Assembly (NCBI GenBank): GCA_018304505.1
Contig: JAGVWA010000011.1
Location: forward strand, 1 to 21,158
Origin: Nanobdellati archaeon
GTDB lineage: Archaea; B1Sed10-29; JAGVWA01
DNA: 21,158 nt
Reading direction: 5' to 3'
Shown: one piece after another, positions 4,176 to 21,158 of the stretch
Position numbering within the stretch: position 1 is the stretch's first letter
Layout of the letters: every line of letters starts with the position of its first letter
Position numbers and translations under genes: made by a program
Notes under the pieces: generated by a model
Told to the model about the DNA's origin: nothing
The model's database searches: none
What the model saw: only the letters and a program-made list of their open reading frames with translations

Positions 4176-4274
4176 TTCACATCACATTTCATTTATTTCA
4201 CATCATATCTCATTTATTTCACTCACATTTCATTTATTTCACATCATATCTCATTTATTTCACTCACATTTCAT
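4172..4274. repeat. Tandem repeat of five 20-21 bp units (41-bp higher-order unit) between the permease and ATPase genes
   Basis: Units TCATTTCACATCACATTTCAT / TTATTTCACATCATATCTCAT / TTATTTCACTCACATTTCAT / TTATTTCACATCATATCTCAT / TTATTTCACTCACATTTCAT. Confidence 0.95.
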
Positions 4275-4280
4275 TTCAAG

Positions 4281-5450
4281 TTACTCATAATGTATCGCCT
4301 CTACTGGATCCATTTTTGCTGCGCGGTGTGCTGGATAGTACCCCCCAAACACGCCAAGGCCAATAGACAAAACAAACGCCAATAAAACCAAATCCGATGT
4401 AACCAAACCCGGAAAACCCAAAAACGAACCCAAAAGCACAACAATTATCGAACCAACTATGATTCCAATAATACCACCAATGACGCTCATAAACATCGAC
4501 TCAAACAACACCAGCTTCTGAATGTCCTTAGCCGTCCAACCAAGGGCCTTCAGGATTCCGAATTCCTTGGTTCTCTCAATAACGCTCATCAACATCGTGT
4601 TTAGGATACCAATAGCTCCAACCAAGATCGCGATCATCGAAACCGTAAAAAAGAATGCATCCAACGAAGACAAGATGGAGCCAGCCTGCTCGCCAAAACC
4701 GGCCCCCGTATCAGCTTTCAGCTCGTCCTCATACCGAAAGTTAATCTTCGATGCGACTTTTTCCGCGTCATTTGGATCTTTAAGTTCCACATAGAACGAT
4801 GCGGCTTGATCATCTTGAAGGCTCCTGAATTTACGGGCAGGCTCTATCGGAATCATGACTGCACGATCAACAAAATTTGAGCCGGTGCTGTAAATGCCTA
4901 CTACTTTCATGCTGATTCCGTTGATGTCAAGGGTTGTCCCAACATTAATCTTGAACTCTTCAGCTACCGGCTTTCCAACAACAACCGCGTTTTTGTCGTT
5001 GTTGTTCAGAAAACGCCCGCGCGTTATTGGCGGATTATACAACGAGCCCTTGACAAGCTGCGAATTCTTTGCTGGGTCCAAACCGAAAAATGGCAACGCG
5101 CCGCCAAATGGGGCCGCCCGCAACTCATGTGCCTTTCCGCCGAGGCTTGTTATAAAACCGCCGACGCTTGGCGCTACTATGCGCACTTCTGCAAACTTTT
5201 CAATCTCCGCAGCGCGCTTCATGTCAACAATACTGAAAACGTCGTCCACTGCCCCATCTTGCAAAACCACCACGCCTTGTATCTGCGTCAGGATCCCGGT
5301 TATGTTTTCACGCAAACCCGCGGAAATCGAAATCAGGCCCACGACGCCGACAATCGCAATGATAACGCCGATTAAAGCAAGAAGTGTTCTCGATTTTTTT
5401 ATCCACAAGTTCTGGTATGCAAACTTATATACGCCGGTAGTCTCTACCAA
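4281..5450 (-). CDS. ABC transporter permease, MacB/FtsX-like
   Basis: N-terminal RTLLALIGVIIAI TM, extracellular domain with GRFL...AVVVG, GILNTMLMSVIERTKEFGILKALG, C-terminal PAHRAAKMDPVEAI. TTG start preceded by GAGGT SD-like sequence. Confidence 0.93.
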   Translation of the reverse strand: MVETTGVYKFAYQNLWIKKSRTLLALIGVIIAIVGVVGLISISAGLRENITGILTQIQGVVVLQDGAVDDVFSIVDMKRAAEIEKFAEVRIVAPSVGGFITSLGGKAHELRAAPFGGALPFFGLDPAKNSQLVKGSLYNPPITRGRFLNNNDKNAVVVGKPVAEEFKINVGTTLDINGISMKVVGIYSTGSNFVDRAVMIPIEPARKFRSLQDDQAASFYVELKDPNDAEKVASKINFRYEDELKADTGAGFGEQAGSILSSLDAFFFTVSMIAILVGAIGILNTMLMSVIERTKEFGILKALGWTAKDIQKLVLFESMFMSVIGGIIGIIVGSIIVVLLGSFLGFPGLVTSDLVLLAFVLSIGLGVFGGYYPAHRAAKMDPVEAIHYE

Positions 5451-5451
5451 A

Positions 5452-6942
5452 CTACCTCACCTTTTTCTTGGATTCATCCATTTTCCGTTTCCTACGATAT
5501 ATATAGTAAGAAATGGCCACAGCTAACGCCAAGAAGGCGATCACGCCGAGGTTATTATTAGCCGCATGAACATAAACCGCCGCCTTAACCGTCTTTGAGT
5601 AGGCGTTTCCATTGTTGTCTTCATATCCAACTAGAACCGAAAACTCATTGTCGCCGAGCTTCGTCGTAGTCAGGTCGAAAATCGCCGTGTCTGTATCATC
5701 AGCATCAATTGTCCCCATGAATGATTCCCTGATCCCGATAACTTTCTCTTCTAAAAGCGTTGCTCTTACTGATCGCGCACTTCCTGTCCCAATGTTTTCT
5801 AATTGTATGGAAACACTAAACGGCTTTCCAGATATTACCTGCTCAACGTCGGTTGTTACTCCTGCCCCTCGCAGATCTGGAATTCCGTCCACAACAAGTG
5901 CTGCTGCTTCGCGCTGCGATTTTTCCGCAGCATCAATGATGATTGTCATTGGGTAGATACCACTGGCGAGCGCCCTGTCGGCGCGCACAGAAAACGTTAC
6001 CTGTCGCGACTCTCCTGGACGCAGGTTCCCGAGGTATAACGAGTTATCAGCAATGGATAATGAAATATTCGTTAGCAGCGAAACCTTAACATCAGAGAAG
6101 GTTGCCTGGCCCCGATTTGTCACAATAAAGCCCACGTCTGCTTGTTTTCCGGGTTCAATGCTGGTAACGACATCTGAGACATCCAGCTCTGCCCGCGAAG
6201 CAACCTGCAAAACAAATGACTTGTTCACTTGCTGCCCATCATAATCAACTGAAACAACCGCTGGATACGCCCCAGGATCGGCAAACGGCGTTACCTCACC
6301 GTCAATGACAACCATAGCTGCTGAACCCGCCCCTATGATAGCCGTCCGTTTCGGCATGCTGGTAAGCACATTGATGTACGGCGCATTTAAAATCAGGTCT
6401 GTCATTACGTTCGCCGCCGGAAAACCACCATTGTTCAACAGTGTGACGTTTATAGTGAATAAATCGCCCACGGATATGCTGGGCGTCATTATAATAGCGT
6501 CAATTTCGACACGCGGGGAGCTCTCGACGCTCATGGAAACATAACGCGTTGATACCACATTGATACCCTTGTTGGTTTCCGTAAAATAAAACGTCACTGG
6601 AACTGAATAAATCCCGGGGTCGACGTTTTCCACATTGAACCTAAAATACAGTGTGTACTGGTCATTTGGATTGATCTCCAACAACTCCACCGTGTCCTTG
6701 ACCGCAACAAATCCATCTGGGAAACTCGCCACGGCCTTTACGTTGGTGTATTTCGCATTGCCGTGGTTGATTACGTCGACCTGAAGCGTTGCGCCGGCCG
6801 TGTCGGGCTCTATTTCTGCGGGGAACGTCCTAGAATTTGAAATGCTCAGGGCGCTGCTGGCCGGATAATAGGTAGAGGCGTTCTGCGCAATCACTGACGC
6901 CAAAAGAAACACCAATACAAAAAGCACCTTATAATTTGACAT
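5452..6942 (-). CDS. COG1361-like S-layer-domain / CARDB-Ig repeat surface protein, first gene of the ABC operon
   Basis: Signal peptide MSNYKVLFVLVFLLASVIA, repeated NxGxxxAxNV / GNLRPGES Ig-like modules, C-terminal TM followed by YRRKRK. ATG 6942 chosen because a TATA (TTTAAAT, ~6964-6970) lies ~25 bp upstream. Confidence 0.85.
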   Translation of the reverse strand: MSNYKVLFVLVFLLASVIAQNASTYYPASSALSISNSRTFPAEIEPDTAGATLQVDVINHGNAKYTNVKAVASFPDGFVAVKDTVELLEINPNDQYTLYFRFNVENVDPGIYSVPVTFYFTETNKGINVVSTRYVSMSVESSPRVEIDAIIMTPSISVGDLFTINVTLLNNGGFPAANVMTDLILNAPYINVLTSMPKRTAIIGAGSAAMVVIDGEVTPFADPGAYPAVVSVDYDGQQVNKSFVLQVASRAELDVSDVVTSIEPGKQADVGFIVTNRGQATFSDVKVSLLTNISLSIADNSLYLGNLRPGESRQVTFSVRADRALASGIYPMTIIIDAAEKSQREAAALVVDGIPDLRGAGVTTDVEQVISGKPFSVSIQLENIGTGSARSVRATLLEEKVIGIRESFMGTIDADDTDTAIFDLTTTKLGDNEFSVLVGYEDNNGNAYSKTVKAAVYVHAANNNLGVIAFLALAVAISYYIYRRKRKMDESKKKVR

Positions 6943-6959
6943 GATAAAACAAATAAGAC

Positions 6960-7000
6960 AGGATTTAAATAACTTGCCCACTAAGAAGTTTTTTATACGC
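6960..7000. promoter_or_regulatory. Divergent archaeal TATA promoters
   Basis: ATTTAAATA at ~6963-6971 serves the minus-strand operon. TTTTTATA at ~6990-6997 lies ~24 bp before ATG 7021. Confidence 0.6.
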
Positions 7001-7020
7001 GACAAGCGTTGTTAGGCTGC

Positions 7021-8568
7021 ATGAAAAAAGCGGTATTACTCCTCATGGCTCTGTTGCTCGCCACGGGCTTCGCCCAGGCCAAGATAGTTTCGCCAAAAAG
7101 CGGCTCAACATTCCACGTTGGTGAAGAGATCAGGCTCATCGGCTTTGTCGGTTCAAACACCTCGTGCTCCGGAACAAGTTACCTGAGTGTCAATGACCAG
7201 CTCGTAACGCAGACAACACGGCGCTTCTATGCTGGCGAAATCATGTCGCTTGAAGGCCTTTTTGGAAACAACTCACTTCCAAACTCGGCGGGAAACAAAA
7301 ACCTTAAAATCTACTCAGACTGTTTCCTGGGCCTCAACATAGCTTACACCGTGGAAAATAACCTCGACATAATTTATTCCTTGAACAGGCAACAGGCGAT
7401 GCTAAACGACGAGATCGCCATCAGCGCTTACGCCTTTACTGACACGCAGCTCTGGAGCATAACGAAAATCCAGTCTGGCAAGACAGAATACATCGACAAC
7501 GCGGTTTTCAGTTTCAGCTCTGCCGGTGAAAAAACCATCTCCTTGAGCGCACAGGACCAGTATGGAAACAAAAACAACCTAACTCTCATTATTGACATTT
7601 TCGATGAACTGGCTCTCGATGTCAACCCTGGCAAGACAACAGCAGAGCCGCTCGAGATCATTCCAATAAGCTTAACCGCTAAAGACTCCTTTGGGCAACC
7701 CAGGGTGACGAACATAACCATTGCCGGCTTCGGCACCACCACTACCAGGGAAATAAACGGCGAACAGACAATCGATATAATTGCGCCCCAAATAACGGCG
7801 CCCGGAAACTACACAATAACAGTGAAAGCCGACTCGAACGGAAATACGGCAGAAAAAACAATTAGCGTCCTCGTCAAGGCCATTACCTCTCTCGTCGTCC
7901 TGTCCACGAACAAATACCAGTTTTCGCCTAATGAAAAACTAGAGGCCACGGTTACTGCACTAGACCAATCAGGCGGTCCTGTAAACGGAAACGCGATCTT
8001 GGAAATCAAAACCGATGCGGGAACGGCCCTCTACTCAAAAGAAGTCGCCAGCGGCGCGACAGAGCAAATCATCCTAACGAACTACTTTCCAGCTGGCACA
8101 CTAACGGTTTTCGCAACGCTCGGCCAGAAACAGGCGCAGCGGCAGGTATATCTGAATCAGGAAGCTGCAGTTGATGGCTCAGCAGAAGTTACTGCAACTG
8201 GTGTGCTCGAAACCACAGTAACAAACACAGGGAACATTCAGGTTGACAGCACCGTCATACAGGTATGCGATGATGAGCAGTGCCGTGAGACGACAATCAC
8301 TGGCTTAACGCCAACTGATTCTGAAAGGCGCGTGTTCACAAATGTTAAAGGAACCCCAACGATAACGGTGACGCATGACGGCGAAAGTGCAAACATTCCC
8401 GTAAAAACACAGGCCGTGTCGGCATTCTCTCCAACCGGCCTGGCAACCGGCGCAATGGCAGTGAAGGACAACTACGTCATGATCCTGACGATCCTCGTGG
8501 TTCTTTTGGCCATTGTTTACGCAAGACGATGGCGCATGGGTGGCCAGATGAACCCATTCAGGCGATAA
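7021..8568 (+). CDS. Secreted, membrane-anchored surface protein with tandem Ig-like beta domains
   Basis: Signal peptide MKKAVLLLMALLLATGFAQA, Thr/Asn-rich beta-strand pattern (AQDQYGN, PGNYTITV, TNTGN), PTGLATG motif, then C-terminal TM and basic YARRWR. Confidence 0.85.
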   Translation: MKKAVLLLMALLLATGFAQAKIVSPKSGSTFHVGEEIRLIGFVGSNTSCSGTSYLSVNDQLVTQTTRRFYAGEIMSLEGLFGNNSLPNSAGNKNLKIYSDCFLGLNIAYTVENNLDIIYSLNRQQAMLNDEIAISAYAFTDTQLWSITKIQSGKTEYIDNAVFSFSSAGEKTISLSAQDQYGNKNNLTLIIDIFDELALDVNPGKTTAEPLEIIPISLTAKDSFGQPRVTNITIAGFGTTTTREINGEQTIDIIAPQITAPGNYTITVKADSNGNTAEKTISVLVKAITSLVVLSTNKYQFSPNEKLEATVTALDQSGGPVNGNAILEIKTDAGTALYSKEVASGATEQIILTNYFPAGTLTVFATLGQKQAQRQVYLNQEAAVDGSAEVTATGVLETTVTNTGNIQVDSTVIQVCDDEQCRETTITGLTPTDSERRVFTNVKGTPTITVTHDGESANIPVKTQAVSAFSPTGLATGAMAVKDNYVMILTILVVLLAIVYARRWRMGGQMNPFRR

Positions 8569-10290: not shown

Positions 10291-10310
10291 CCCCGCGTGA
10301 CTTGATTTTC

Positions 10311-11012
10311 ATGCAATTAAAAGAAACCCTGACGACGATTGATACATACGACAACATTTCTGAGGCAGACCTAGACACTCAGTTTAATCAACCCCTTGAC
10401 TCGTCACATTTGGGAAAATTCATAGACTTGCTGCACGGCAAGCTGATTTTAGACGCGGGGTGCGGCCCCGGCCGCAACTCGAAATATTTCCAAGGACTAG
10501 GCTACGAAGTCACCGGCATCGACGCATCCAAAACCGCGATAGAGTCCGCCAAAAAACGCGTGCCAGGCGTAACGTTCTACAAAATGGATATCCTAAATTT
10601 GGCGTTCAAGTCTCGTCATTTTGACGGCGTCTGGTGCAACGCCACTTTTCTTCACGTGCCAAAAGAGCATGCCCGCGCCGCGTTACAAAGCTTGCGCAAC
10701 GTACTCAAGGAAGGTGGCGTGCTGTTTCTGAGCCTTAAATATGGAAAGAAAAAACCGGGATACGAAACAGAAACGTATGGCCGGCCGCGGTACGAATCAT
10801 ACTACTCAGAAGCTGAAATACAAGACCTGCTGATAAAAAATGGCTTCGAGATCCTAAAAGCAGAAACTGGCACGGAAGCAGAAACGGGCGCAGAGACAAC
10901 CGGCACGGGCACAACCGGCACGGACACAACCGGCACGGACACAACGAACACTGGCCACGTTAACCCAAAACAAAAATGGCTGTACGTCTACGCAAGGCGG
11001 CACACTGAATAA
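10311..11012 (+). CDS. Class I SAM-dependent methyltransferase
   Basis: Motif I ILDAGCGPG, VTGIDAS, FDGVWCNATFLHVP, LKEGGVLFLS. Confidence 0.92.
   Translation: MQLKETLTTIDTYDNISEADLDTQFNQPLDSSHLGKFIDLLHGKLILDAGCGPGRNSKYFQGLGYEVTGIDASKTAIESAKKRVPGVTFYKMDILNLAFKSRHFDGVWCNATFLHVPKEHARAALQSLRNVLKEGGVLFLSLKYGKKKPGYETETYGRPRYESYYSEAEIQDLLIKNGFEILKAETGTEAETGAETTGTGTTGTDTTGTDTTNTGHVNPKQKWLYVYARRHTE
10863..10955 (+). repeat. In-frame 15-bp tandem repeat (TTGTD-like) inside the methyltransferase
   Basis: ACAACCGGCACGG(G/A)C x3 at 10896-10940, plus degenerate flanking copies. Confidence 0.9.
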
Positions 11013-11024
11013 ATAATCAGTTAA

Positions 11025-11462
11025 TCAATCGTCATTGCGCAGGGCGTCTTTCCCATATTCGTCCTCTAGTGCGCGAATCTGGTCAATGGTATTGTTTACC
11101 ATGTCAACCCTATCATTTCTCACACTTGTTATGGCCTCGATTTGAGCATCTACAATAGCAACGGCGGCATTGCCAGCAACAACATCGGCAACCCTTTCCC
11201 GTACAATTTTACGCGCCATTGCCGTCGCGTGGTCACCCCTTGCACCATCTGTCAAAAGCAGGCTATCGCTGCCTTCAACATCAAGCAAAATCCGCTTGCC
11301 AGGAATGATGTGCGCCTCGTGTATGGGCAAGACTGAGATTTCAATGTATTCCCCCATATCTTTTGCGTCACGGTGTATCTCAGGGTGTTCTACACTAAAC
11401 AGCGCTTTTCGTTTCAGGCCGTCTAGTTGATCTGGATCGTGTATCGTTGTTATGTCCCACAT
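11025..11462 (-). CDS. Hypothetical protein, MW(D/N) family copy A
   Basis: 145 aa, begins MWDI, own TATA (TTATATAC on minus strand, ~11491-11498). Clear paralog of 11542..12003 (LLLTDG..G.HA...AR.I). Confidence 0.85.
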   Translation of the reverse strand: MWDITTIHDPDQLDGLKRKALFSVEHPEIHRDAKDMGEYIEISVLPIHEAHIIPGKRILLDVEGSDSLLLTDGARGDHATAMARKIVRERVADVVAGNAAVAIVDAQIEAITSVRNDRVDMVNNTIDQIRALEDEYGKDALRNDD

Positions 11463-11541
11463 GCTAATCTTAAGGTTATTGCACCGCGCAGTATATAACT
11501 GTTTTGGTTTTCTCGGCTAAATTAAAGCCCGCGGGGATTGT

Positions 11542-12003
11542 TTAATCCTGGTCGTCTTTTTCAAATAAGTCCTCAATGTCATACAAGCTCCGTACACACC
11601 CAACAAACTCATCGGTCCTGTGCACGGCTTCTCTTATTTCTCTCTCCGTTTCGTCGAGCATCTTCCGTTGCTTTTGAATTTCCATAAACTCAAGCGTGCT
11701 GCGCACCTGCTCTTCAAGGGCGCTAGATGCAATTCTCCTGGCGATCTCTGAAGCATGCGCCCCCTCTGGGCCATCTGTCAAAAGCAGGCCGCTTCGTGTG
11801 CTTTCTGAATCATCACCTTGTTCAATCAAAATCCCGTGCGGTAGTAAAACGTGCGCATTTAGAACCGGCCCCTCTTTTGCCCCCAGTTCCGCGTTACCCG
11901 GGGCGATCTCAGAAAGCACCGCTGGGTTATTTGCACTAGCTATTGCTGTTTTTCGCAACCACTCAAGTTTACTTGGGTCGGTTACGGTTCTAATGTCCCA
12001 CAT
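11542..12003 (-). CDS. Hypothetical protein, MW(D/N) family copy B
   Basis: 153 aa, begins MWDI, own TATA (~12031-12040). Upstream region is homologous to that of copy A. Confidence 0.85.
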   Translation of the reverse strand: MWDIRTVTDPSKLEWLRKTAIASANNPAVLSEIAPGNAELGAKEGPVLNAHVLLPHGILIEQGDDSESTRSGLLLTDGPEGAHASEIARRIASSALEEQVRSTLEFMEIQKQRKMLDETEREIREAVHRTDEFVGCVRSLYDIEDLFEKDDQD

Positions 12004-12081
12004 CTGATCTTGTGGTTACTGGGTCGTGCGGTATATAAATGTTTGCGCACGGGTTGTATATTTGGATATTAAAATTAGTTA

Positions 12082-12315
12082 TTAGAACACGTCGCCGTCT
12101 TCCCCATATGACTCGCCGTCGTCCGAATCATAATCTGTGTCATCGTCGTCTGGGAAATCGCCATCCAGATCATCATCAGGGAATTCATCGTCAGGATCCC
12201 ACCCCTGGTCTGGGCCTGTGTCAACGTCTGTTTGCTCCAAACGCCTTGCAGCGGCAAACATTTTTTTGGTCTCGTCGGCGCGTGCAGCGTCGTAATGTAA
12301 TTGGATGTCCCACAT
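12082..12315 (-). CDS. Small hyperacidic protein, MW(D/N) family copy C
   Basis: 77 aa from ATG 12315: MWDIQLHYDAARADETKKMFAAA followed by an Asp-rich tail. TATA-like TTTAAAAA ~30 bp upstream. Confidence 0.75.
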   Translation of the reverse strand: MWDIQLHYDAARADETKKMFAAARRLEQTDVDTGPDQGWDPDDEFPDDDLDGDFPDDDDTDYDSDDGESYGEDGDVF

Positions 12316-12372
12316 AAGATCAACAATCCAATAACCCACATGGTCTTTTTAAAGTTTTCCCTGGTGGCTTCT

Positions 12373-13602
12373 TCAGCGTGCGATCAGCATTCTCCAGAGG
12401 GTTCCCGGGGTTATCGAGATTCGATCGATCGGCGACTCGTTTATGAACGTTCCGGCAAGCATGTCCCTGAATTCCTTGCTCGCATGTATGCGCTTTATGG
12501 CGAAGTTGAGAAGCCACTTGTGCTTTAAGAATCTCTGGAGCCTTGTCGAGTTCTTAAATTCACCCCCAATTTCCTTCAGTAGTTCATCGCGGTACTCGCC
12601 AAGGTTCTGCTTTGAAAAATCGTTATCATAAAAGGCCTTTAGAATCACCTTTGATGCCACACGGGCGCTCAGCATGCCGTTTCCAATACCCTCGCCGCTG
12701 AACGGGTCAATAAGGCCGGCGGCGTCGCCAATTAGCAGTGCCCCATCAAAAACCATCTCCCGCGGCTTGCTTCCAAGTGGCAGGTTCCAGCCAACTATCT
12801 TGCCCTTCTTCTTCGCGTTCTTGAAGCGACCTTTCATCAGCGGGTTTTTTTCAACGATTTCGTCCATCAGCTTAACTAGATTCACGTTCCGTTCTTGGCG
12901 CGCATCAACCAGCATGCCCAAGCCCACATTAGCTTCGTTTTTGTCGCCAGTTGGGAAGATCCAGAAATATCCGGGCATCACTTCGTCGACAAAATGAATT
13001 TCTATGCGATTCGTCATTCCCTCGACGCCATCATAGTACGCGCGCACCGCGATACTCGTGTTTGGGGGATCCATCAACTCCAGCCCTAACTTTTGGGCAA
13101 CGACACTAGTGGCCCCGTCAGCACCAACAACCATGCGAGAAATGAATTCGTGGTCTTGGCCCTTTGCGTCCTTGGCCTTTATTCCAACAACCCTGCTGTT
13201 GTCGAAAATCAAATCCATAACAGCGAGGCCTTCCATTACCGTTGCGTGTTTTTTGGCTTCTTGAAACACCAGGTTGTCGAACATTTGGCGCTTGCACACA
13301 AAACCGAGAAACGTCTCATCTGGTTTTGGGTTGTCGATCTCTGCCGCAATTCCTTTTGGGCTCGAGATGAGTACGCCGTTGATCTTTGCCGCTCCCGTTT
13401 TTGCAACTCGGTCCACCAAATCAAGGTCCTTGAGGATCGCCATGCTTTTTCCCGAGATGGCATCACCACAGGTCTTGTCCCGGGGAAACGTGGCCTTGTC
13501 TATTAAGAGGACGCGCTTGCCCGCCTTTCCCATGTAGATAGCGCAGGCGCTGCCGCTGGGGCCTGCCCCAACAATGATTACGTCAAAATCCGCTTGTTGC
13601 AT
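12373..13602 (-). CDS. Geranylgeranyl reductase family FAD-dependent oxidoreductase
   Basis: DVIIVGAGPSG, FPRDKTCGDAIS, VGADGATS, PGYFWIFP, LLIGDAAGLIDPFSGEGIGNG. GGAGA SD upstream. Confidence 0.93.
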   Translation of the reverse strand: MQQADFDVIIVGAGPSGSACAIYMGKAGKRVLLIDKATFPRDKTCGDAISGKSMAILKDLDLVDRVAKTGAAKINGVLISSPKGIAAEIDNPKPDETFLGFVCKRQMFDNLVFQEAKKHATVMEGLAVMDLIFDNSRVVGIKAKDAKGQDHEFISRMVVGADGATSVVAQKLGLELMDPPNTSIAVRAYYDGVEGMTNRIEIHFVDEVMPGYFWIFPTGDKNEANVGLGMLVDARQERNVNLVKLMDEIVEKNPLMKGRFKNAKKKGKIVGWNLPLGSKPREMVFDGALLIGDAAGLIDPFSGEGIGNGMLSARVASKVILKAFYDNDFSKQNLGEYRDELLKEIGGEFKNSTRLQRFLKHKWLLNFAIKRIHASKEFRDMLAGTFINESPIDRISITPGTLWRMLIAR

Positions 13603-13630
13603 AAATATCTCCCTTTTCTTGTGTTGTTTA

Positions 13631-13726
13631 TAATCCGCTGTAATCTATTGCTTGTAATCTGCTGTAATCTATTGCTTGTAATCCGCTGTAATCTGTTGTT
13701 TATAAGCTTCTGTAATCTATTGCTTG
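13631..13726. repeat. Four 24-bp tandem units in the GGR promoter region
   Basis: TAATCCGCTGTAATCTATTGCTTG / TAATCTGCTGTAATCTATTGCTTG / TAATCCGCTGTAATCTGTTGTTTA / TAAGCTTCTGTAATCTATTGCTTG. Confidence 0.92.
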
Positions 13727-13796
13727 TTCCTGCTTAAGCTTTTTACGCCGCGCTGTAATTTAAAGTTTACGCTGGCCGCGCCGTTGTCAGTGCACC

Positions 13797-15113
13797 TCAC
13801 AGGTATTGCTCTGTGTAAAGTGCCGTGGCATAAATAAGAAACTGACTCATGCTGTTGTTTTCGATTGCCTGGTAGTACCTTTCTTTTGAATCTGCTTCGA
13901 AGGTAACTGGAAAATAATCTCTCGAGATGAGCAAATTGAAAATCAATCTAGCTACCCTGCCGTTGCCGTCTTGAAACGGGTGAATCATAACAAACTGCTG
14001 GTGTACAACAGATGCCAAAATAAATGGGTGCAGCGTGTCCTTGTTTTCCCTGTACCACGTCATCAGTGAACGCATTCTTTCTTTTACGTGCACCGGCGGC
14101 GTTGTGGGGTGGTTTCCAACCACGTTGTAGCCCGCCTTGTACTTGCCGGCGCTTTTGCTGATGTTCTTTTCTATAAAATAGTGCAGATCTTTTATCAGCG
14201 CCCCGTCAAAGTCGCTCGCCGACTTTTGCTGCGCCCACTCAAAAGCCTCTGCGGTATTTATCGTTTCATGCAGGTCCTTAGCTTTTGCGTACCTGGGAAA
14301 GGTTCCTGCGGTGATGTACTTGGTGACTTCTGATGCGGTTAGGGGGTTTCCCTCTATCCGATTTGTGTTGTACACGTACCTATATTTCCGCTGCTTTTCC
14401 AACTCGTCCCTCGTTGCTTCTGGCAAGCTCTTCAGATAATACGCATGCTGTTTAGTGATTTCGCCAATTTTGGCCAGTTGTATCATTATTCTCTCATCTG
14501 GGGCATATGCCCTTGCTTTGTCAAGAAAGTAATCCCCTCCTTGCACATAGTGCTCGTCACACGCCTGCTTTATCCCCTTGTCCGATTGTGCCCCCCGCGG
14601 TTTTCTTGCTGCTGTTTTCTCAAGCTTTTCCAAAAATTCTAAGTACTCATCAGCAGTTACCCTTGGCACAATGTTGAAGTAATCCAACAGTGTTCTTGCT
14701 ATCGTTTCGTTGGCCCGTAGGCTTGCCGTCAGCGGCCTCTTTTTCGTTATCAGCGCGATCTTTAACCTGTGCAACTGCCTTGTCTTTCTTATGCCGTTGA
14801 GGCTAGCGTTTTTTGCAATTTCTAAACTCTTGCTGCCGGCCAGCAGTCTGAGGAGCTTTTCTGTTCCCGGCGAAATCAGGAAGAGGTAGTCCTTTGGTGC
14901 TATTTCCCTTAGCAAAATCAGCTTCCTGGCCTTTTCACTTGCTGGGTTTGCTATGTACGTTTTTCCTTTTTTCGTTATCAGGCCATCCGTCCTAAGTGCT
15001 GCTAGCTGAGTGTACAGGTTCGGCAACGCGGTCTGTGTTTTTTCTGCTAGCTCTTGAGCTGTGAGGCCCTCTGGGCGCTTGAACAAATAACTTAGCACTA
15101 TGTACTTCTTCAT
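13797..15113 (-). CDS. Fic-domain protein with N-terminal winged HTH
   Basis: Canonical Fic motif HPFQDGNGRVAR, upstream inhibitory motif TNRIEGN, N-terminal GLTAQELAEKTQTALPNLYTQLAALRTDGLI. Start could alternatively be 15128. Confidence 0.9.
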   Translation of the reverse strand: MKKYIVLSYLFKRPEGLTAQELAEKTQTALPNLYTQLAALRTDGLITKKGKTYIANPASEKARKLILLREIAPKDYLFLISPGTEKLLRLLAGSKSLEIAKNASLNGIRKTRQLHRLKIALITKKRPLTASLRANETIARTLLDYFNIVPRVTADEYLEFLEKLEKTAARKPRGAQSDKGIKQACDEHYVQGGDYFLDKARAYAPDERIMIQLAKIGEITKQHAYYLKSLPEATRDELEKQRKYRYVYNTNRIEGNPLTASEVTKYITAGTFPRYAKAKDLHETINTAEAFEWAQQKSASDFDGALIKDLHYFIEKNISKSAGKYKAGYNVVGNHPTTPPVHVKERMRSLMTWYRENKDTLHPFILASVVHQQFVMIHPFQDGNGRVARLIFNLLISRDYFPVTFEADSKERYYQAIENNSMSQFLIYATALYTEQYL

Positions 15114-15135
15114 GCCTGTATTCTGCATTTTTTAG

Positions 15136-15208
15136 TATAAAAATATACCTGTTTTGGTTAAAATAATCATTTTTTAGCATAAACAGATATAAAATTATAC
15201 CTGTTTTG
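15136..15208. promoter_or_regulatory. Putative operator: 21-bp direct repeat plus inverted repeat over the Fic promoter
   Basis: TATAAAA(A/T)TATACCTGTTTTG at 15136-15156 and 15188-15208. Imperfect palindrome AAACAGATATA-aaat-TATACCTGTTT at 15181-15206. Confidence 0.6.
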
Positions 15209-15329
15209 TGCTCGGGGGTCTTTTTGGGCTTTAACCGACCTTCTTTTATACTATCCGCTTTATTTGTGCCGTCTGCTTCTTTTTTGTATATACCGCCCTC
15301 TTCGTGCTGCTGGCCCCATTTATACTGCG

Positions 15330-16022
15330 TCAGAGCAACGCCAGGAACTCCTTGGCCGTCTCAATGTTTGGTTTGAACGGAAATCGCTCGAAGAAAGACC
15401 TGAACTCTGGATAGAACTCCAGTGTGGCGTCGATGAGGGTCTGCTCCCTATCCGAGAAGTCCAGCGAGCGCATTTCCAGCTGCAGCACGTGCCGGTATGC
15501 CGGGTCGGTGTAGCACATGAACAGGTTGATGGCGTGCCACAGGAAGTCCGTCAGTTTTCGGTCCCTGACTAATGGATAGAACAGCGTAATGAGGTCGAAA
15601 TTATGTTCTTGTAGGACGGGCAGGTTGTACATGAAGAACGCGTCGTCGAGGTACAGGAAGTTCACCTGATACAATGCAGTGAGGTTGCGCGGTAGTGTAA
15701 GATCCTGGTTTGCGTGGTGAATCCTCATCAGGGCCCGGATCTTGGCCCAGTCACCCCCAGCGCTCCCTGTATCTCCCATACTCATGGAAACCCCGACGCG
15801 CCGGGTGTCTGGGGTGTACTTTACTAAAATGTTCTTGGCAACGAGGTCTGCAAGCACATCATCCTGCACGAACCTGCTGACCTTCTTGTCCGGCGTTTTC
15901 GGGTAAAAGCCCGGAACGGTGTCTCTTAGGTGCCGCGCGATCTCTGTCGCGCTTCTGGGAATTGGGTACCTGCAGAACTCCAGCGTTTTCATCTTGGCGA
16001 GGTCCTTGCTGTAGTGCACCAT
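15330..16022 (-). CDS. Hypothetical protein with probable N-terminal winged HTH
   Basis: 230-aa ORF. PRSATEIARHL...VSRFVQDDVLADLVAKNILVK resembles a wHTH. Confidence 0.7.
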   Translation of the reverse strand: MVHYSKDLAKMKTLEFCRYPIPRSATEIARHLRDTVPGFYPKTPDKKVSRFVQDDVLADLVAKNILVKYTPDTRRVGVSMSMGDTGSAGGDWAKIRALMRIHHANQDLTLPRNLTALYQVNFLYLDDAFFMYNLPVLQEHNFDLITLFYPLVRDRKLTDFLWHAINLFMCYTDPAYRHVLQLEMRSLDFSDREQTLIDATLEFYPEFRSFFERFPFKPNIETAKEFLALL

Positions 16023-16232
16023 GGCTTAATCTTTCATTTAAGGTATAAAAAAGTATGGGTGCTTTCTCGGACTTGGCGTAATCCTGCGGGCTGTGTAGGT
16101 TCGGCACATGTCAGACCACGTGTCCGGCTCAACAGTTCTCAGACCACACCTCCAGCCCAGCAGTTCTCCGGCCCAATAGTTCCAGTATTCGGTTTTTCAG
16201 AAATCGGTAGTTGTAGTAGTAGAAAGTAATTG

Positions 16233-16274
16233 CGTATATATAATATAATACGTATATATAATATAATATAATGT
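16233..16274. repeat. AT-rich tract built from a perfect 18-bp tandem duplication
   Basis: CGTATATATAATATAATA x2 at 16233-16250 and 16251-16268. Confidence 0.95.
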
Positions 16275-16275
16275 A

Positions 16276-16615
16276 TCTGTTGGTGTGTTGGTTGGTTCGG
16301 TTGTTGATTGGTTCGGTTGTTGATTGGTTTGATTGTTGGTTGATTCGGTTGTTGATTGGTTTGGTTGGGGCTGGTTTGGGTTTTGGTTGGGGTTGTTTGT
16401 GCATTTTTTGGGGGTTGGTTTGGGTTTTTTGTTGGTTCGTTTGGGTTGGTTGTGGGTGGAAGCTGGTCGCTTGACCGTGTTGGTTGTTTGACAAAAATGG
16501 GTTGCTTAGCGATGATTTTGGTGTGTTGTGGGTGTTGGGTTGTTGGTTGGTTTTTGGGTGTGTTGTGGTTGGGGTTGTTTTGGGGTTGTGGGTGTTGTGT
16601 TGCGGTACGTGTTGG
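16276..16615. repeat. Strand-biased G/T low-complexity tract, starting with five 16-bp units
   Basis: TTGGTTCGGTTGTTGA-like units at 16292-16371, then mostly G and T to ~16615. Confidence 0.9.
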
Positions 16616-16619
16616 GCCC

Positions 16620-16985
16620 CTATCGTCTGTGGTGCCTGATCAGGTGGGCTGGCGACTTTTTGTACAAACCCGTGCTGCTAGTCCTTGAGCGTACCGCCCT
16701 TTGCGGTTCTGGCGCGTGTTCTTCTGGTTCGGGGCTATAAGCCGGGCCCCCACGCCGTTGTACAAGCACAATGTCCTTAACTGATAAAACGTTTGAGTAT
16801 GAAACCGACATGTCCCGAGCCATTACACGTGCTTCTTCCTTGCTCATTGGCCGCAGGGCCTGCGTTGTGAGCTTGAGCACACCCCCCATTTCTAGGTCTA
16901 GGATTATGTCATGGACCTTGCCAACATAACCCGCTTCTGCGCTGAAGATGTCCATACCGTACATGCGTGATAGCTCTACTGTCAT
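16620..16985 (-). CDS. PRC-barrel domain protein (archaeal COG1873 / CdpB-like)
   Basis: LSRMYGMDIFSAEAGYVGKVHDIILDLEMGGV...VSYSNVLSVKDIVLV, followed by a disordered basic tail. Confidence 0.88.
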   Translation of the reverse strand: MTVELSRMYGMDIFSAEAGYVGKVHDIILDLEMGGVLKLTTQALRPMSKEEARVMARDMSVSYSNVLSVKDIVLVQRRGGPAYSPEPEEHAPEPQRAVRSRTSSTGLYKKSPAHLIRHHRR

Positions 16986-17018
16986 GATGTTTCGCCAATG
17001 AGAAATAGGAAGCAGGGG

Positions 17019-17034
17019 TTTATAATTCTTTCGT
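17019..17034 (-). promoter_or_regulatory. BRE-TATA promoter of the PRC-barrel gene
   Basis: Minus strand ACGAAAGAATTATAAA. Confidence 0.65.
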
Positions 17035-17135
17035 TTTCAGAAGCCGCACAACGAAATACTGGAAGTAGCCCCCCAGCGCGGGGCGTTGAAACAACCCCCA
17101 ACCAGGAACGCCAAACCCGGCCAGCAAGTCAAGGA

Positions 17136-18248
17136 TTACTTGTTTGCGAGCACAAACCTGATTTTTTCCTCTAGGTCAAAGACCTGCCCGTTGTCACGCG
17201 AGATTTTTTTCACCACGGGTTCTGTTAGACCCTTCTTGCTCATGATGTGCACGTCGCTCACGAGCGCAAGCCGAGAGAGCTGCTTTGCGATGCTGCCCTT
17301 TGTTTTTCCGGTTTGCTCGGCTATCTGCTCGTACGTCATGGGCTTGTTTGAGTCGCTAAGACACGTGACTATGCTCCACTGCAGCGGCGACAACCTCGAC
17401 TCGAGTTCGTTTATTTCCAGCGACCGGGTGTTTTCTGCGATTTTCTCGTTTGATTCCTTCACAATGCGCACCAGGGTAGAGGTGGGTGATAGCTCCACGG
17501 GCACGCGCTTGTCAAGTTCCGCCAAGGCGTGACTATGCTTGCCAATGATTGAGGCAATGGTGTTGCTGTTGATGCTGTGCTCCTTGTTGTGCGTCTCGTG
17601 CAGTTCGCGGCAGATCTTCTCCGCATTTTTGAGCACGTTCCTGGCGTTCAGGTCGCTCCTGACCGCGAGCTCGTGTAAGGCTTGGCTCGTGAACGGGTTA
17701 ACGCCACCGTCCATGCGCTTTTTAATCAGCTCAATCAAGTCATCTGAGCTGAACTTTGGCAACTCGATGGTGTCTGAAATGCGGTGTTTCATTGAATCAA
17801 CAATGTTTGCGTAGTCAATGGTTGAGAACACCACGGCCTTAAGCACACCAGAGTCGAAGAAAGCCTTGATTTCCTCGGTCTTGTCTTCATCAAGCTTCTG
17901 GATCTCGTCGCAAAGTAGCACGACCTTGTCTTTGCTTGAGTACGCCCCGCCGTCAAGCAGGCCGAGCAGGCGCCGGGGTTTAGTCATGAGCTTAGTCATG
18001 GAAAACTCGCTTGCTGGGGCCTGACTACAGTCATGATAGACCATGTTAAAGTCAGTCCCAAGTTCACCGGCAAGCAGCTTCAGCATCGTTGTCTTGCCAT
18101 TTCCTGCGTAGCCAACAACAGCGGTGATGTTTCCGCTGTGGATGCTTTCCTTAATTTTTTTAAGTTCACTCACCCTACCCACAAACTTTTCTGGGTGGGG
18201 CCTAATGTCGAAGGGGTTTTCCTTGAAACCATACGATTCAAACCACAT
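17136..18248 (-). CDS. AAA+ ATPase (ExeA/Cdc6-like fold) with C-terminal winged HTH
   Basis: W..YGFKENPF N-terminus, FVGRVSEL, Walker A GYAGNGKTT, Walker B LLCDEIQ, lid SDLNARNVL, C-terminal LSPLQWSIV...MTYEQIAEQTGKTKGSIAKQLSRL. Confidence 0.9.
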   Translation of the reverse strand: MWFESYGFKENPFDIRPHPEKFVGRVSELKKIKESIHSGNITAVVGYAGNGKTTMLKLLAGELGTDFNMVYHDCSQAPASEFSMTKLMTKPRRLLGLLDGGAYSSKDKVVLLCDEIQKLDEDKTEEIKAFFDSGVLKAVVFSTIDYANIVDSMKHRISDTIELPKFSSDDLIELIKKRMDGGVNPFTSQALHELAVRSDLNARNVLKNAEKICRELHETHNKEHSINSNTIASIIGKHSHALAELDKRVPVELSPTSTLVRIVKESNEKIAENTRSLEINELESRLSPLQWSIVTCLSDSNKPMTYEQIAEQTGKTKGSIAKQLSRLALVSDVHIMSKKGLTEPVVKKISRDNGQVFDLEEKIRFVLANK

Positions 18249-18259
18249 ATCAATTCTCC

Positions 18260-18437
18260 GTAGTCATTTTTGATAGCCCGCAGGCGTAGTCATTAGTCAC
18301 GGACTTAGTCACCGATAGGTTTATATAGTAGTCATGACTAGTCACCATGACTACAATTTGACTAAGACACACGTTCTATGACTAAGATGCGTGACTCTGA
18401 CTAACAAGCGTTAGTCAAGAAATGAATACGTAGTCAG
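18260..18437. repeat. Dense array of TAGTCA/TGACTA hexamers in a divergent intergenic region
   Basis: 13 perfect copies: TAGTCA at 18261, 18287, 18294, 18306, 18329, 18339, 18412, 18431; TGACTA at 18335, 18348, 18359, 18379, 18398. Confidence 0.95.
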
Positions 18438-18466
18438 GGTATATAAAGGTATTGGGGCTGTTGGGC

Positions 18467-18598
18467 ATGATAACTCTCACTGAGTTTGTGAAGGCGCTCG
18501 AAAAGAGCAGATTTGGATATAAGATCGAGAACAGGGGCTTTGTAAATATAACTGTAGACACGTCGAGGCTCCTCCTACACCCAGTCAAGGCATGCTGA
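18467..18598 (+). CDS. Small hypothetical protein (43 aa), absent from the ORF track
   Basis: MITLTEFVKALEKSRFGYKIENRGFVNITVDTSRLLLHPVKAC*. TATA GTATATAAAG at ~18439-18448. Confidence 0.55.
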   Translation: MITLTEFVKALEKSRFGYKIENRGFVNITVDTSRLLLHPVKAC

Positions 18599-18689
18599 GG
18601 GGCTGAACTCTCACTTTGGGATCAACCCTCATTTTTCTAGCTTCAGCGCTTGAATACCGGAAGTGACCCCCTGGTTTTCGGTCTTTTTT

Positions 18690-18836
18690 CTACTTTTTGC
18701 CTTCGTATACGGTGCGAACGCTCACGTTTCCCTTTTTGTTCACACGCTGCGAGCTGTACCTGTAAGGCCCGTGAAGCTGGCCGCGGGCGCACCTACAATT
18801 GGGCTTCCCACACCGCACATACCTTGAATACACCAT
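18690..18836 (-). CDS. Small basic Cys/His (zinc-binding) protein, DUF6788-like
   Basis: MVYSRYVRCGKPNCRCARGQLHGPYRYSSQRVNKKGNVSVRTVYEGKK, with the CGK..C.C....HGPY motif. ATG 18836 with TATA-like TTAAATA ~25 bp upstream. Confidence 0.75.
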   Translation of the reverse strand: MVYSRYVRCGKPNCRCARGQLHGPYRYSSQRVNKKGNVSVRTVYEGKK

Positions 18837-18869
18837 GTTGTAGTGTAAGAATAGGGGGTATTTAAGACT

Positions 18870-19230
18870 TGTGCTCAAACCCTCACATTGTGCCCGGCAA
18901 ACTGAGCACGAACCGCACGCCCCTGGGCGCGAGCATAAAACCCACCCGCGAGCATGGGGGCTCGGTACCCCCGCACGAACCCCCACAACCCCTCTGTAGT
19001 GTAAGATCTGCTGCGTGTAGTGTAAGATCCAATGTTTGGGGCCCTGAGCACAGAATCCTCACTTTGGGCACAACACACCTGAGCACACGTGCTTGGGCAT
19101 CACCGCATGCGCCCACGCCCAAGGCGCCCACAAGCCAAACCACAGCACAAACACACACATTACGCCCCCCACCCACTCAGCATACCACCCAAGCCACGCC
19201 AGCAGCCGCATAGCACCCGTATTCGCAGAA
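18870..19230. repeat. C/A-biased low-complexity non-coding tract
   Basis: C- and A-rich plus strand (e.g. CACAGCACAAACACACAC, CCCCCCACCCAC). Overlapping ORFs look spurious. Confidence 0.65.
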
Positions 19231-19249
19231 CCCTCACCTTTAGCGTGCC

Positions 19250-19395
19250 ACTTATATATGATATATCTTAATGGTTTTTGTTTATAAATTAAATTGATTA
19301 TAGCGTAAAGTATAAAAAATAAAATATGTTTTAAAACCTATAAATTAAATCGTAACGGCAAACATTTATATACTTCGTCTTATTATATTTTGTTT
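19250..19395. other. AT-rich intergenic tract containing TATA elements
   Basis: ~145 bp strongly AT-rich. TTTATATA at ~19365-19372 precedes the wHTH gene. Confidence 0.7.
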
Positions 19396-19406
19396 AGGTG
19401 AGACTC

Positions 19407-19739
19407 ATGATAAGTGCCCTTTTCTTTAAGCAAAAACCGGTGCGCGCCCTTGCCTCCCTGGCGCAAAAAGACAGGGTTTGGTATGCAAGCATGCTGTGCA
19501 AGGAAATCGATTGCACGTACCCCCATTTGACAAACCTCCTGAAGGAGTTTGAGCGTCAAAATTTGATTACGACCACCGGGCAAGGCAGAATTAAGATCAT
19601 CGAACTCACAGACACGGGCGACGACCTCGCGCACGACCTCGAAAACCTGCTGCGGCGCATGGACAAAATCGAAAAAAGCGGAGGAAGCAAGGCGCAGGAG
19701 CAAGAGGCTGAAGCGGGAGAGAAAAAGCCCGGAAAGTAA
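19407..19739 (+). CDS. MarR-like winged-HTH protein
   Basis: LFFKQKP...YASMLCKEIDCTYPHLTNLLKEFERQNLI...GRIKIIELTDTG. AGGTGA SD before ATG 19407. Confidence 0.88.
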   Translation: MISALFFKQKPVRALASLAQKDRVWYASMLCKEIDCTYPHLTNLLKEFERQNLITTTGQGRIKIIELTDTGDDLAHDLENLLRRMDKIEKSGGSKAQEQEAEAGEKKPGK

Positions 19740-19790
19740 ACTTTGGGAAAAACCCAAAAAGTTTGGGAAAACAGAATTTGGGGAAATAGC

Positions 19791-20375
19791 ATGGTGGCAG
19801 CAGAAATAAGGCACGTGGGAATCGAGGATTTTGAGACCCTGAAGATGATCTACGACAAGACAAACCCGAAGGGCGGCAAAAAGTTCGGCAGTTACCCGAT
19901 GATGGACTGGATCAAGTACCCGCGGCAGAACCAGATGCTGCTCGCATTTGTCGATGAAAAGCCAGCGGGTTTCATTATCGCGCAGCCCCGTGGAAGAAAG
20001 ACCAAGATAGTGTTCTTAAGAATTCTTAAGGCATTTGAGAAAAAGGGCACGCGGAAGCAGTTGCTTGATGCGATCACCAGCACGCTGGACGCAGGGCGCA
20101 CGGTGGAAATGGTTGTGCCGCGCTCATCAGCTGCATTGACTGGTTTTTTCAGGCGCCACGGTTTTGAGCAAACGGAAACTTATCCTGGCTTGTTTGGCAG
20201 CGGCAAAACAGGCGTGCTGTTCAGCAAAACAATTGAACTTCCAGTGTACGGCCGAACCAGGGCGCTGAAGGAAGCCGGGGAACGAGAGAAGCCGCAGGGC
20301 CTTTCGGGAACACGGGGTTTGCGCACTTCGATTTTAGAGCGCAATTTGCGGAAGCTGGACGAGATTTTAGATTGA
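19791..20375 (+). CDS. GNAT-family N-acetyltransferase
   Basis: LLAFVDEKPAGFI, FEKKGTRKQLL (degenerate motif A), FFRRHGFEQ. Confidence 0.8.
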   Translation: MVAAEIRHVGIEDFETLKMIYDKTNPKGGKKFGSYPMMDWIKYPRQNQMLLAFVDEKPAGFIIAQPRGRKTKIVFLRILKAFEKKGTRKQLLDAITSTLDAGRTVEMVVPRSSAALTGFFRRHGFEQTETYPGLFGSGKTGVLFSKTIELPVYGRTRALKEAGEREKPQGLSGTRGLRTSILERNLRKLDEILD

Positions 20376-20388
20376 TGATCTTTTGGGG

Positions 20389-20785
20389 TTAGAATGATCG
20401 TGGCACAGGTTGTTGAGCGCCACGCAGTAGGCCTTCCAGCGCCGCGATTTCTGTTTCCAGGACAGCTATAGTGCTGTCGACCTTTACACCAGGCTGGTCG
20501 ATCATTGCCTCAACGGCAAGTTTTCTGGCTGCGCATTCTGCTTCAGCTCTTGTCAGGGTGCCCCACAATTAAATTTCCCCTCTCAGTTGTGCGCCCGTCC
20601 GCGTCGCACAGCAACGCAAAATGGCCTTCGATGCCAACGATTTCCGCTTCAAATTCCTTGCGCAACGTTCGCGCGCCAGGATCATCGCCGTAAGTACTCA
20701 GTTCGTCAACAGCGTTCACCAGCGCCGCTCGCCGTTTAGCAAGCGCTCCGTCGCTTTTGTATTCTAGAATTGGTTCGTTCCACAT
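20389..20785 (-). pseudogene. MW(D/N) family copy D, apparently frameshifted
   Basis: ORF 20543..20785 begins MWNE. Removing one G from the GGGG run near 20561-20564 (plus-strand CCCC) continues as GTLTRAEAECAARKLAVEAMID...PRSF* to 20389, which resembles the C-halves of copies A and B. Confidence 0.6.
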
Positions 20786-20840
20786 AACTAATCACTTAGA
20801 TAATCACGTAGAATAATTTGGCTGTTCCGCTTTATAAGCT

Positions 20841-20877
20841 TTTTGCAGAATTAGATGTTGTTTTGCAGAATTAGATG
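20841..20877. repeat. 17-bp direct repeat (20-bp period) duplicating a stop-codon region
   Basis: TTTTGCAGAATTAGATG at 20841 and 20861. Confidence 0.9.
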
Positions 20878-21086
20878 GTCATAGGTATATTTTTTAGGGT
20901 TTGGTAGTAGCGTGGGTCTTCGTCTTCCAACGGCTCTAGCACGTTCAGCATTTCCTTGACAAATTCTGATGGATCTTCTGCTAGCAAGCGTGCAGCCTCT
21001 TCAGCAGTCAGGTAACCAAGGCGATTAGGGTTAATTTTTATAGGTGCTGTTCCGAAGAATCCTGTTCCTGTTCCGCCGTCCCACAT
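20871..21086 (-). CDS. Small acidic hypothetical protein, MW(D/N) family copy E
   Basis: 71 aa beginning MWDG. GGAGA SD and TATA (TATTTATA, ~21122-21129) upstream. Confidence 0.75.
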   Translation of the reverse strand: MWDGGTGTGFFGTAPIKINPNRLGYLTAEEAARLLAEDPSEFVKEMLNVLEPLEDEDPRYYQTLKNIPMTI

Positions 21087-21158
21087 TAGTTGTCATCTCC
21101 GGTATAATTATACATCGTATCTATAAATAGCTTTTGGTAGACTGCTAGAAGTTGACCC

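Follow-up and report, generated by a model that had tools for sequence, protein, structure and literature searches.

Met-Trp genes of the window

The DNA analyzed here (hereafter the window) is the complete contig C13 of a Nanobdellati archaeon, 21,158 bases of a 917-kb genome that is represented by 21 contigs and is 93% complete. Five small genes, A to E, lie in two clusters on the minus strand of the window, and each encodes a protein with Trp directly after the initiator Met. Their products fall into a lineage-specific class, about 95 in number, of small, acidic, soluble and relative-less proteins, in which this Trp is the sole common feature. A preceding interpretation made from the letters (hereafter the sequence-only reading) had listed the starts MWDITT, MWDIRT, MWDIQL, MWNEPI, and MWDGGT, and all five are present. 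The window contains six matches to ATGTGGRAC, where 0.18 would be expected, and none of 100 shuffles reaches six. Five of the matches are the starts of minus-strand open reading frames (ORFs) at 11462, 12003, 12315, 20785, and 21086, and the sixth, at position 4792, opens a frame of just 24 codons.

Gene A (11025..11462, −; 145 aa, MWDITT, isoelectric point (pI) 4.79) and its tandem paralog, gene B (11542..12003, −; 153 aa, MWDIRT, pI 4.65), are 28% identical (E = 7e-12), and A belongs to a six-protein family with a 'TD(G/D)xxGxH' segment. Gene C (12082..12315, −; 77 aa, MWDIQL, pI 4.05) completes the first cluster and has an Asp-rich, poly-acidic tail. The second cluster consists of gene D (20543..20785, −; 80 aa, MWNEPI, pI 4.87) and gene E (20871..21086, −; 71 aa, MWDGGT, pI 4.34), which has a GGAG 10–13 nucleotides (nt) upstream of its start. 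Genes C, D, and E are each without a detectable paralog. The paralogy of A and B and the distinctness of C and E agree with the sequence-only reading; its description of D as a distant paralog does not hold, since D has no detectable similarity to A (E = 5.8).

The acidity that had been ascribed to the five products is borne out (pI 4.05–4.87), as is the presence of a TATA-like box ahead of each gene, 29–52 nt upstream of the ATG. These boxes, which were matched by eye and with a regular expression and are pattern matches only, are TTATATA (11492..11498, −) 30–36 nt upstream of A, TTTATATA (12032..12039, −) 29–36 nt upstream of B, TTTAAAAA (12346..12353, −) 31–38 nt upstream of C, TTATAAA (20831..20837, −) 46–52 nt upstream of D, and ATTTATAG (21121..21128, −) 35–42 nt upstream of E.

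A further ORF, D' (20389..20568, −; 59 aa), starts with TTG-TGG(-GGC) as (M)WGTLT behind GAGAGGGG, which resembles a Shine-Dalgarno (SD) site. D' overlaps the last 26 nt of D (20543–20568) in another frame, with a GGGG run inside the overlap, and is either a sixth Met-Trp gene in its own right or the C-terminal half of D in a shifted frame; it probably belongs to the Met-Trp class. A one-base shift at the overlap would fuse D and D' into a single protein of ~130 aa, a length close to that of A and B. In contigs from other runs the overlap is identical, with no difference.

Two other features touch these genes. Another ATGTGG lies 26 nt upstream of the start of C and opens an 88-codon frame (12075–12341, −; MWVIGLL) that overlaps C in a different frame; this ATGTGG lies inside the promoter region of C, and the frame is unlikely to be a gene. 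The 17-nt sequence TTTTGCAGAATTAGATG is present as a perfect direct repeat of two copies (20841–20877, 20 nt start to start) in the interval from the stop of E to the TATA-like box of D, and possibly represents an operator or a minor duplication.

The second cluster is not complete in the window. The contig end (21060–21158) overlaps the start of contig C11 (C11:1–99) by about 99 nt. Since the end of C13 repeats the start of C11, the two contigs join and the cluster of E and D runs on into C11, where seven further Met-Trp genes follow within 7.3 kb (positions 1609–7259), with E as the first of the run.

Met-Trp starts across the genome

Genes were called over the genome with a dicodon score (training set, 372 long ORFs), a greedy non-overlap rule, and the first ATG as the start, which is a crude procedure and gave 1052 genes. 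Met-Trp starts are found in 82 of the 473 genes shorter than 160 aa and in 3 of the 579 larger genes (odds ratio 40, p = 1e-26). The sequence-only reading had described five genes in two clusters; these genes exist, and the pattern, far from being confined to them, is genome-wide and spread over 16 of the 21 contigs. The enrichment is also apparent in first-ATG ORFs, where ATG-TGG opens 88 of 2072 ORFs of at least 70 codons and 5 of 758 ORFs of at least 150 codons. A genome-wide count had been proposed as a check on the signature, and it comes out clearly in its favor, since an in-frame internal ATG is followed by TGG in just 74 of 9110 cases, compared with the 82 of 473 small-gene starts. One of the three larger genes lies in the window: an AAA or 'archaeal ATPase'-type protein of 370 aa (17136–18248, −) starts MWFESYGF, which is probably a coincidence.

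One of the 82 starts is false, an internal start inside a DUF655 gene. Nine more small genes, and none of the 579 large genes, have Met-Trp within the first 13 residues, and these nine are probably misplaced start calls. In addition, eight small ORFs start with GTG-TGG or TTG-TGG, most of them with a strong SD site (six GTG and one TTG ORF, with C16_404 in addition). The class therefore totals about 95 genes (81 + 9 + 8 candidates), which is ~9% of the gene complement or about one gene in eleven. The start assignments are robust: 55 of the 82 genes have no in-frame GTG or TTG upstream, the upstream open stretch has a median of 6 codons, and the next in-frame Met is at codon 35 in the median.

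Met-Trp genes tend to be neighbors: they form 28 adjacent pairs where 7.6 ± 2.5 were expected, and none of 2000 shuffles gave more than 17. In dicodon coding the class scores lower than other small genes do (0.38 vs 0.47), and SD sites are stronger in the class (40 of 81) than in other genes (87 of 362 and 110 of 609).

Distribution among relatives

The phylum, which here coincides with the taxonomic class, comprises 31 species genomes, and the studied genome is the sole member of its family. An SD site followed by ATGTGG (GGTGAN{4,9}ATGTGG) occurs 21 times in the studied genome, with one match in the reversed control, and 0–8 times in each of 40 other genomes. The control pattern of an SD site followed by ATGAAA occurs 12 times here and 2–35 times in the other genomes. 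Since the relatives use the same SD site as often, the screen with ATGTGG is a fair one. Five hits of relatives that were inspected (G020, G021) are Met-Trp starts on proteins of 207–981 aa, and not small acidic genes. The comparison with related genomes, which had been proposed as a further check, gave a negative result: the Met-Trp pattern was searched for in other genomes, including the 30 other species of the phylum, and was not found. In a scan of metagenome contigs, 74 pattern matches came up, and not one was confirmed.

The region itself recurs near letter-for-letter in contigs of four further public runs (X3–X6) at ~4x depth, with 0–2 differences; X3 and X4 are possibly a double deposit of one data set. 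That the class is a product of chance, ORF calling, or assembly would gain some footing from the crude caller and from the one false start in the DUF655 gene among the 82. This explanation is effectively refuted by the significance of the excess, by the spread of the genes over most contigs, by the near-identical region in X3–X6 (with the reservation on X3 and X4), and by the control pattern, in which relatives use the same SD site as often.

Constraint on the second codon

Among second codons, TGG is the sole one enriched in small genes (81 in small vs 4 in large genes). Its one-letter neighbors show no enrichment (small/large: TGT 1/1, TGC 1/1, CGG 0/1, AGG 7/8, GGG 1/9), nor do the Phe and Tyr codons (TTT 3/9, TTC 2/6, TAT 1/6, TAC 2/6), and Leu and Ile codons are likewise absent from those enriched. 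In an alignment of the 82 sequences, M1 and W2 are the only invariant columns, and the mean column identity is 6%. The proposal that the extreme N-terminus is retained while the bodies diverge is therefore confirmed, and its restriction to D or N at position 3 is dropped: residue 3 is varied (D12, E11, N10, A9, Q6, T6, S6, and others).

An mRNA 5' element had been named as the alternative to a peptide signal. Codon 3 shows GAC:GAT of 8:3 and AAC:AAT of 6:4, in agreement with the genome-wide use of C-ending codons (67% and 68%). Trp follows ATG, GTG, and TTG alike, and two paralog pairs swap ATG for GTG with Trp retained. Over positions −30 to +33, the class and other genes show no difference in mRNA folding energy (p = 0.2 and 0.1). 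The normal usage at codon 3, the varied start codons, and the lack of a folding difference make an ATGTGG element in RNA or DNA unlikely. Upstream of the genes, no shared cassette was found, and k-mers beyond generic TATA and SD words are enriched at most 5.6-fold and occur in at most 21 of 81 genes.

These observations bear on the idea that a mobile or copied 5' cassette of promoter, SD site, and ATGTGG seeds new genes, so that Met-Trp is a relic of their birth. Lineage-specific orphans in variable islands, as described below, and the lower dicodon score would suit such an origin. The lack of a common upstream k-mer, the upstream distances and signals that vary from gene to gene, and the variation of the start codon itself all speak against it, and a relic dipeptide would be expected to decay like the remaining sequence. 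We consider a cassette origin highly improbable.

Control at the level of the codon is another matter. A UGG second codon could gate translation, for example if the initiating ribosome stalled when charged tRNA-Trp is scarce, which would tie expression of the class to host tryptophan. TGG is the one codon enriched whatever the start codon, the SD sites of the class are stronger than those of other genes, the genome has a single tRNA-Trp gene, and reliance of a reduced symbiont on imported amino acids is plausible. Such gating leaves the restriction to small, acidic, soluble orphans unexplained. It also does not account for the shortage of Lys and Arg at positions 3–8, given that Lys, with its A-rich codons, is usually favored behind a start, and Trp is of ordinary frequency elsewhere in the class proteins (0.95% vs 0.96%). 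No second-codon mechanism of this kind was found in the titles and abstract openings of the literature that was searched. Codon-level control therefore seems to us a rather improbable explanation; if true, translation would be gated by an amino acid in a way that is new. The sole tRNA-Trp gene (C3:106320–106457; anticodon CCA, 64-nt intron) and the start of a Met-Trp gene (C3:106158) are ~160 nt apart.

Beyond Trp2, the composition of positions 3, 4, 5, 6, and 9 is biased above the 99th percentile of a compositional null. Asp, Glu, Asn, Gln, and Thr abound in the stretch up to about residue 9, and Lys, Arg, Gly, and Pro are scarce there; 43% of the members have Thr, Ile, or Val at position 4. 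In 10 paralog pairs, positions 3–8 are conserved no better (22 of 60) than positions elsewhere (282 of 905). The homologs C15_1485 and C17_5761 (E = 2e-9) have bodies offset by 7 residues, and yet both start with Met-Trp. The mark thus appears to follow the terminus and not the body.

Composition, relatedness, and predicted structure of the proteins

The members of the class range from about 50 to 155 aa. A net acidic composition is found in 80% of them, compared with 35% of other small proteins, and membrane-like segments are found in none, compared with 20% of other small proteins. A Sec, Tat, or class III (pilin) signal would need a hydrophobic core, which is missing: none of 81 members has a 19-residue window with a mean hydropathy above 1.6. 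The share of helix-forming residues varies from 0.31 (beta/turn-rich) to 0.71 (coiled-coil-like), and C carries its poly-acidic tail.

Searches of the 82 Met-Trp proteins against Pfam gave one family match, namely the false DUF655 start. Matches to PHROGs (2 of 82, E = 0.003–0.009) and to PADLOC (1 of 82, E = 0.008) are marginal, and A–E and D' have no Pfam or NCBIfam match at E ≤ 0.001. Within the class, BLASTP and phmmer yield about nine small paralog groups. After removal of the Met-Trp dipeptide, 20 of 3240 pairs score above the 99.9th percentile of shuffles, a 6.2-fold excess, whereas pairing class members with other small proteins gives a 1.3-fold excess. The recognizable paralogs of Met-Trp proteins are thus nearly always Met-Trp proteins as well, and most members are not detectably related to one another.

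The family of A and B extends to six members that have in common M1, W2, one Gly, and the T-D...G of the 'TD(G/D)xxGxH' segment. When the A/B profile was run against the 1052 proteins of the genome, the next two best matches were both Met-Trp proteins. A profile-profile comparison of the A/B family with the family of C14_35601 (hereafter the C14 family) gave a probability of 0.1%. The A/B and six-member profiles were also run against 5.8 billion proteins and recovered the organism's own proteins and near-identical variants; the A/B profile against 1.84 billion cluster representatives likewise returned proteins of the same organism and near-identical variants. The one outside match in these searches was P0003.

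The best-conserved A/B segment, LLLTDGxxGxH followed by a helix (11220–11290 in A and 11745–11815 in B), resembles the strand-TDG-helix of von Willebrand A (VWA) domains. P0003 is a eukaryote-like VWA-repeat protein that matches 21 profile positions (LLLTDGxxGxH) in five repeats, and it was rejected as a local resemblance. A VWA identity for A and B was likewise set aside, since neither has a VWA match in Pfam.

AlphaFold models were built for two families. The model of A, from a three-row alignment, has a predicted local distance difference test score (pLDDT) of 65 and a predicted template modeling score (pTM) of 0.46, with strands at residues 2–7, 47–53, 57–62, and 67–72 and a long helix at 78–136. 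That of C14_35601, from three paralogs, reaches a pLDDT of 76 and a pTM of 0.66 and shows a strand at residues 4–7, a hairpin at 27–42, and then helices, with a pLDDT of 84–88 over the first 40 residues. Foldseek gave no match at E ≤ 0.001 for either model, VIA-align with the C14 model alone gave a best Z of 3.6, and ESM Atlas gave no usable match.

Relatedness and structure together bear on a role for Trp2 as a structural anchor retained by descent. One or a few tandem-duplicated families would have diverged beyond recognition, with Trp2 packing an N-terminal strand or segment on a small hydrophobic core and no reader involved. The excess of adjacent pairs and the closure of the class under paralogy fit this well. 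So do the six-member A/B family, which shares just M, W, G, T, D, and G, and the two Met-Trp proteins that come next in the A/B profile search. The two modeled families, which are unrelated, both show an N-terminal beta-strand pairing with a later hairpin, and the preference for Thr, Ile, or Val at position 4 is of the same tenor.

On the other hand, the A/B and C14 profiles show no relationship, no more than 20 of the 3240 pairs are similar above chance, and the homologs offset by 7 residues both start with Met-Trp. Phe and Tyr often substitute at buried aromatic sites, and neither ever does so at position 2. Since the bodies range from coiled-coil-like to beta/turn-rich to poly-acidic, a single structural place for Trp2 is hard to picture. 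We give a structural anchor a modest chance of being the explanation. If it is, the class represents an extreme expansion of families in which divergence erased all but one residue.

A putative mark at the free N-terminus

The reading that we favor, tentatively and at somewhat less than an even chance, is a protein-level mark at the free N-terminus that is read by a common factor. Selection would act on the free N-terminus of the protein. Given the established specificity of methionine aminopeptidase, Trp at position 2 should block removal of the initiator Met, and all members would thus expose a Met-Trp end that is unprocessed and may be acetylated. A single factor, common to the class, would recognize this end at the ribosome or later, and all members would in consequence be sorted, modified, handed over, or degraded. 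The exclusive use of Trp at position 2 in a class that is physicochemically coherent, with bodies that are heterogeneous, suggests such a mark. The lack of extra conservation at positions 3–8 among paralogs and the offset homologs that both start with Met-Trp point in the same direction.

Several observations weigh against this mark. No candidate reader was found in searches that covered ClpS, WXG100, encapsulin, and the adjacent GNAT gene, and ClpS (PF02617) is present in none of the 31 genomes of the phylum. The GNAT gene adjacent to the second cluster (19743–20375) matches generic GNAT models, no NCBIfam model, and no named N-terminal acetyltransferase. A 96%-identical variant of A in another assembly (P0002, on a 1.8-kb contig) starts MCDITT, with Trp2 replaced by Cys, and also has five further changes near its C-terminus; Trp2 is thus not inviolable. 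Two other variants retain Met-Trp; the three strain variants together show 10 substitutions over 401 residues, one of them at Trp2. Both structure models open with a beta-strand of above-average confidence (pLDDT 71–88) and show no free N-terminal tail, and a structural role therefore fits at least as well as a tag. Finally, since Trp has one codon, sequence alone cannot separate selection on the peptide from selection on the UGG codon.

If an N-terminal mark is the right explanation, the members of the class are candidate interaction proteins of an archaeon that is uncultured and depends on a host, and the short N-terminal peptide is a handle for their reader. A more specific form of this reading takes Met-Trp as an address label by which lineage-specific machinery would hand the ~95 proteins across the cell-cell contact into the host. 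We regard this form as improbable; if true, both a sorting signal and an effector repertoire would be described in a DPANN-type symbiotic archaeon for the first time. Taken as a whole, the sequence-only reading, an N-terminal targeting signal on a diversifying protein family, is partly supported; export, encapsulation, or docking, and action on a host, would be possible roles for such a signal.

Genomic surroundings

The Met-Trp genes of the window have as neighbors genes for a KaiC-like ATPase, a MacB-type ABC transporter, a CARDB surface protein, a methyltransferase, a geranylgeranyl reductase, a Fic/DOC protein with a helix-turn-helix (HTH), the AAA ATPase that starts MWFES, and the GNAT acetyltransferase. 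In C11 and C15, Met-Trp genes alternate with PIN_3 genes, a ParD-type antitoxin, PaREP1 with a nucleotidyltransferase, and genes without assignment. The tandem runs of Met-Trp genes thus sit in variable islands rich in toxin-antitoxin genes. For the HTH-Fic/DOC protein (13797–15128, −), the best NCBIfam match is 'mobile mystery protein B', under the cutoff of the model, and this gene marks the DNA that separates the two clusters as mobile or variable.

Several features of low complexity were also noted in the window. Three tandem 15-bp units (CCGGCACGGrCACAAC) at 10900–10945 encode the Thr/Gly-rich tail of the methyltransferase (10302–11012). A TA-repeat tract, followed by ~200 nt of C/A-rich low-complexity sequence on the minus strand, occupies 16235–16490; the TA tract is covered very deeply and with indels in two metagenomes, presumably by unrelated DNA, and a 121-aa ORF over this region (16129–16494) is doubtful. 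The sole Rfam match on the window is a tRNA-Met.

Comparison with known systems

The Met-Trp signature, carried by ~9% of the genes and absent from the 30 other species of the phylum, matches no known sorting, stability, or translational signal. Neither a class of proteins with Met-Trp starts nor a rule for Trp at the second codon was found in the literature, as judged from titles and the beginnings of abstracts. In this genome, which is 93% complete, there is no match to the encapsulin shell (PF04454), and three ORFs match FtsK (PF01580), the family of the EssC/EccC ATPases of type VII secretion, solely at profile positions 35–61, the P-loop.

WXG100 proteins and other type VII substrates resemble the class in being ~100 aa long, acidic, clustered, and united by a Trp mini-motif rather than by overall similarity. 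In WXG100 proteins, the WxG occupies the central turn of a helical hairpin, whereas none of the 82 Met-Trp proteins matches the WXG100 family (PF06013), and a six-frame search of the genome found no match either. The PE/PPE proteins of mycobacteria have conserved N-terminal domains of ~110–180 aa and are secreted by ESX systems. Like the Met-Trp proteins, they are a lineage-specific expansion that takes up about a tenth of the genes and are named after an N-terminal residue motif. In the Met-Trp class, however, M1 and W2 alone are invariant, and there is no N-terminal domain of ~100 aa.

Effector repertoires that are recognized by a short N-terminal motif are known from powdery mildews (the Y/F/WxC candidates) and oomycetes (RXLR). 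Those repertoires and the Met-Trp class are alike in being large, lineage-specific, clustered sets of small, fast-diverging proteins with a tiny N-terminal motif. In the Y/F/WxC and RXLR proteins of these eukaryotic pathogens the motif follows a cleaved Sec signal peptide, whereas here it consists of the first two residues. The Met-Trp class has neither a signal peptide nor a hydrophobic segment (0 of 81), and its secretion is a conjecture.

Eukaryotic N-termini of Met and a hydrophobic residue serve as substrates of NatC-type acetylation, as docking ends, and as Met-Φ N-degrons, and they accept Leu, Ile, Phe, Tyr, and Trp. In the present archaeon, Trp alone is enriched and ClpS is missing from the phylum, in contrast to these eukaryotic ends. 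To our knowledge, signals of the Met-Φ/NatC kind are the sole known ones in which a retained initiator Met and a bulky second residue are read at the free N-terminus. The mark proposed here would work in a similar manner: Met-Trp is encoded in all members, and the specificity of methionine aminopeptidase predicts that the Met is retained.

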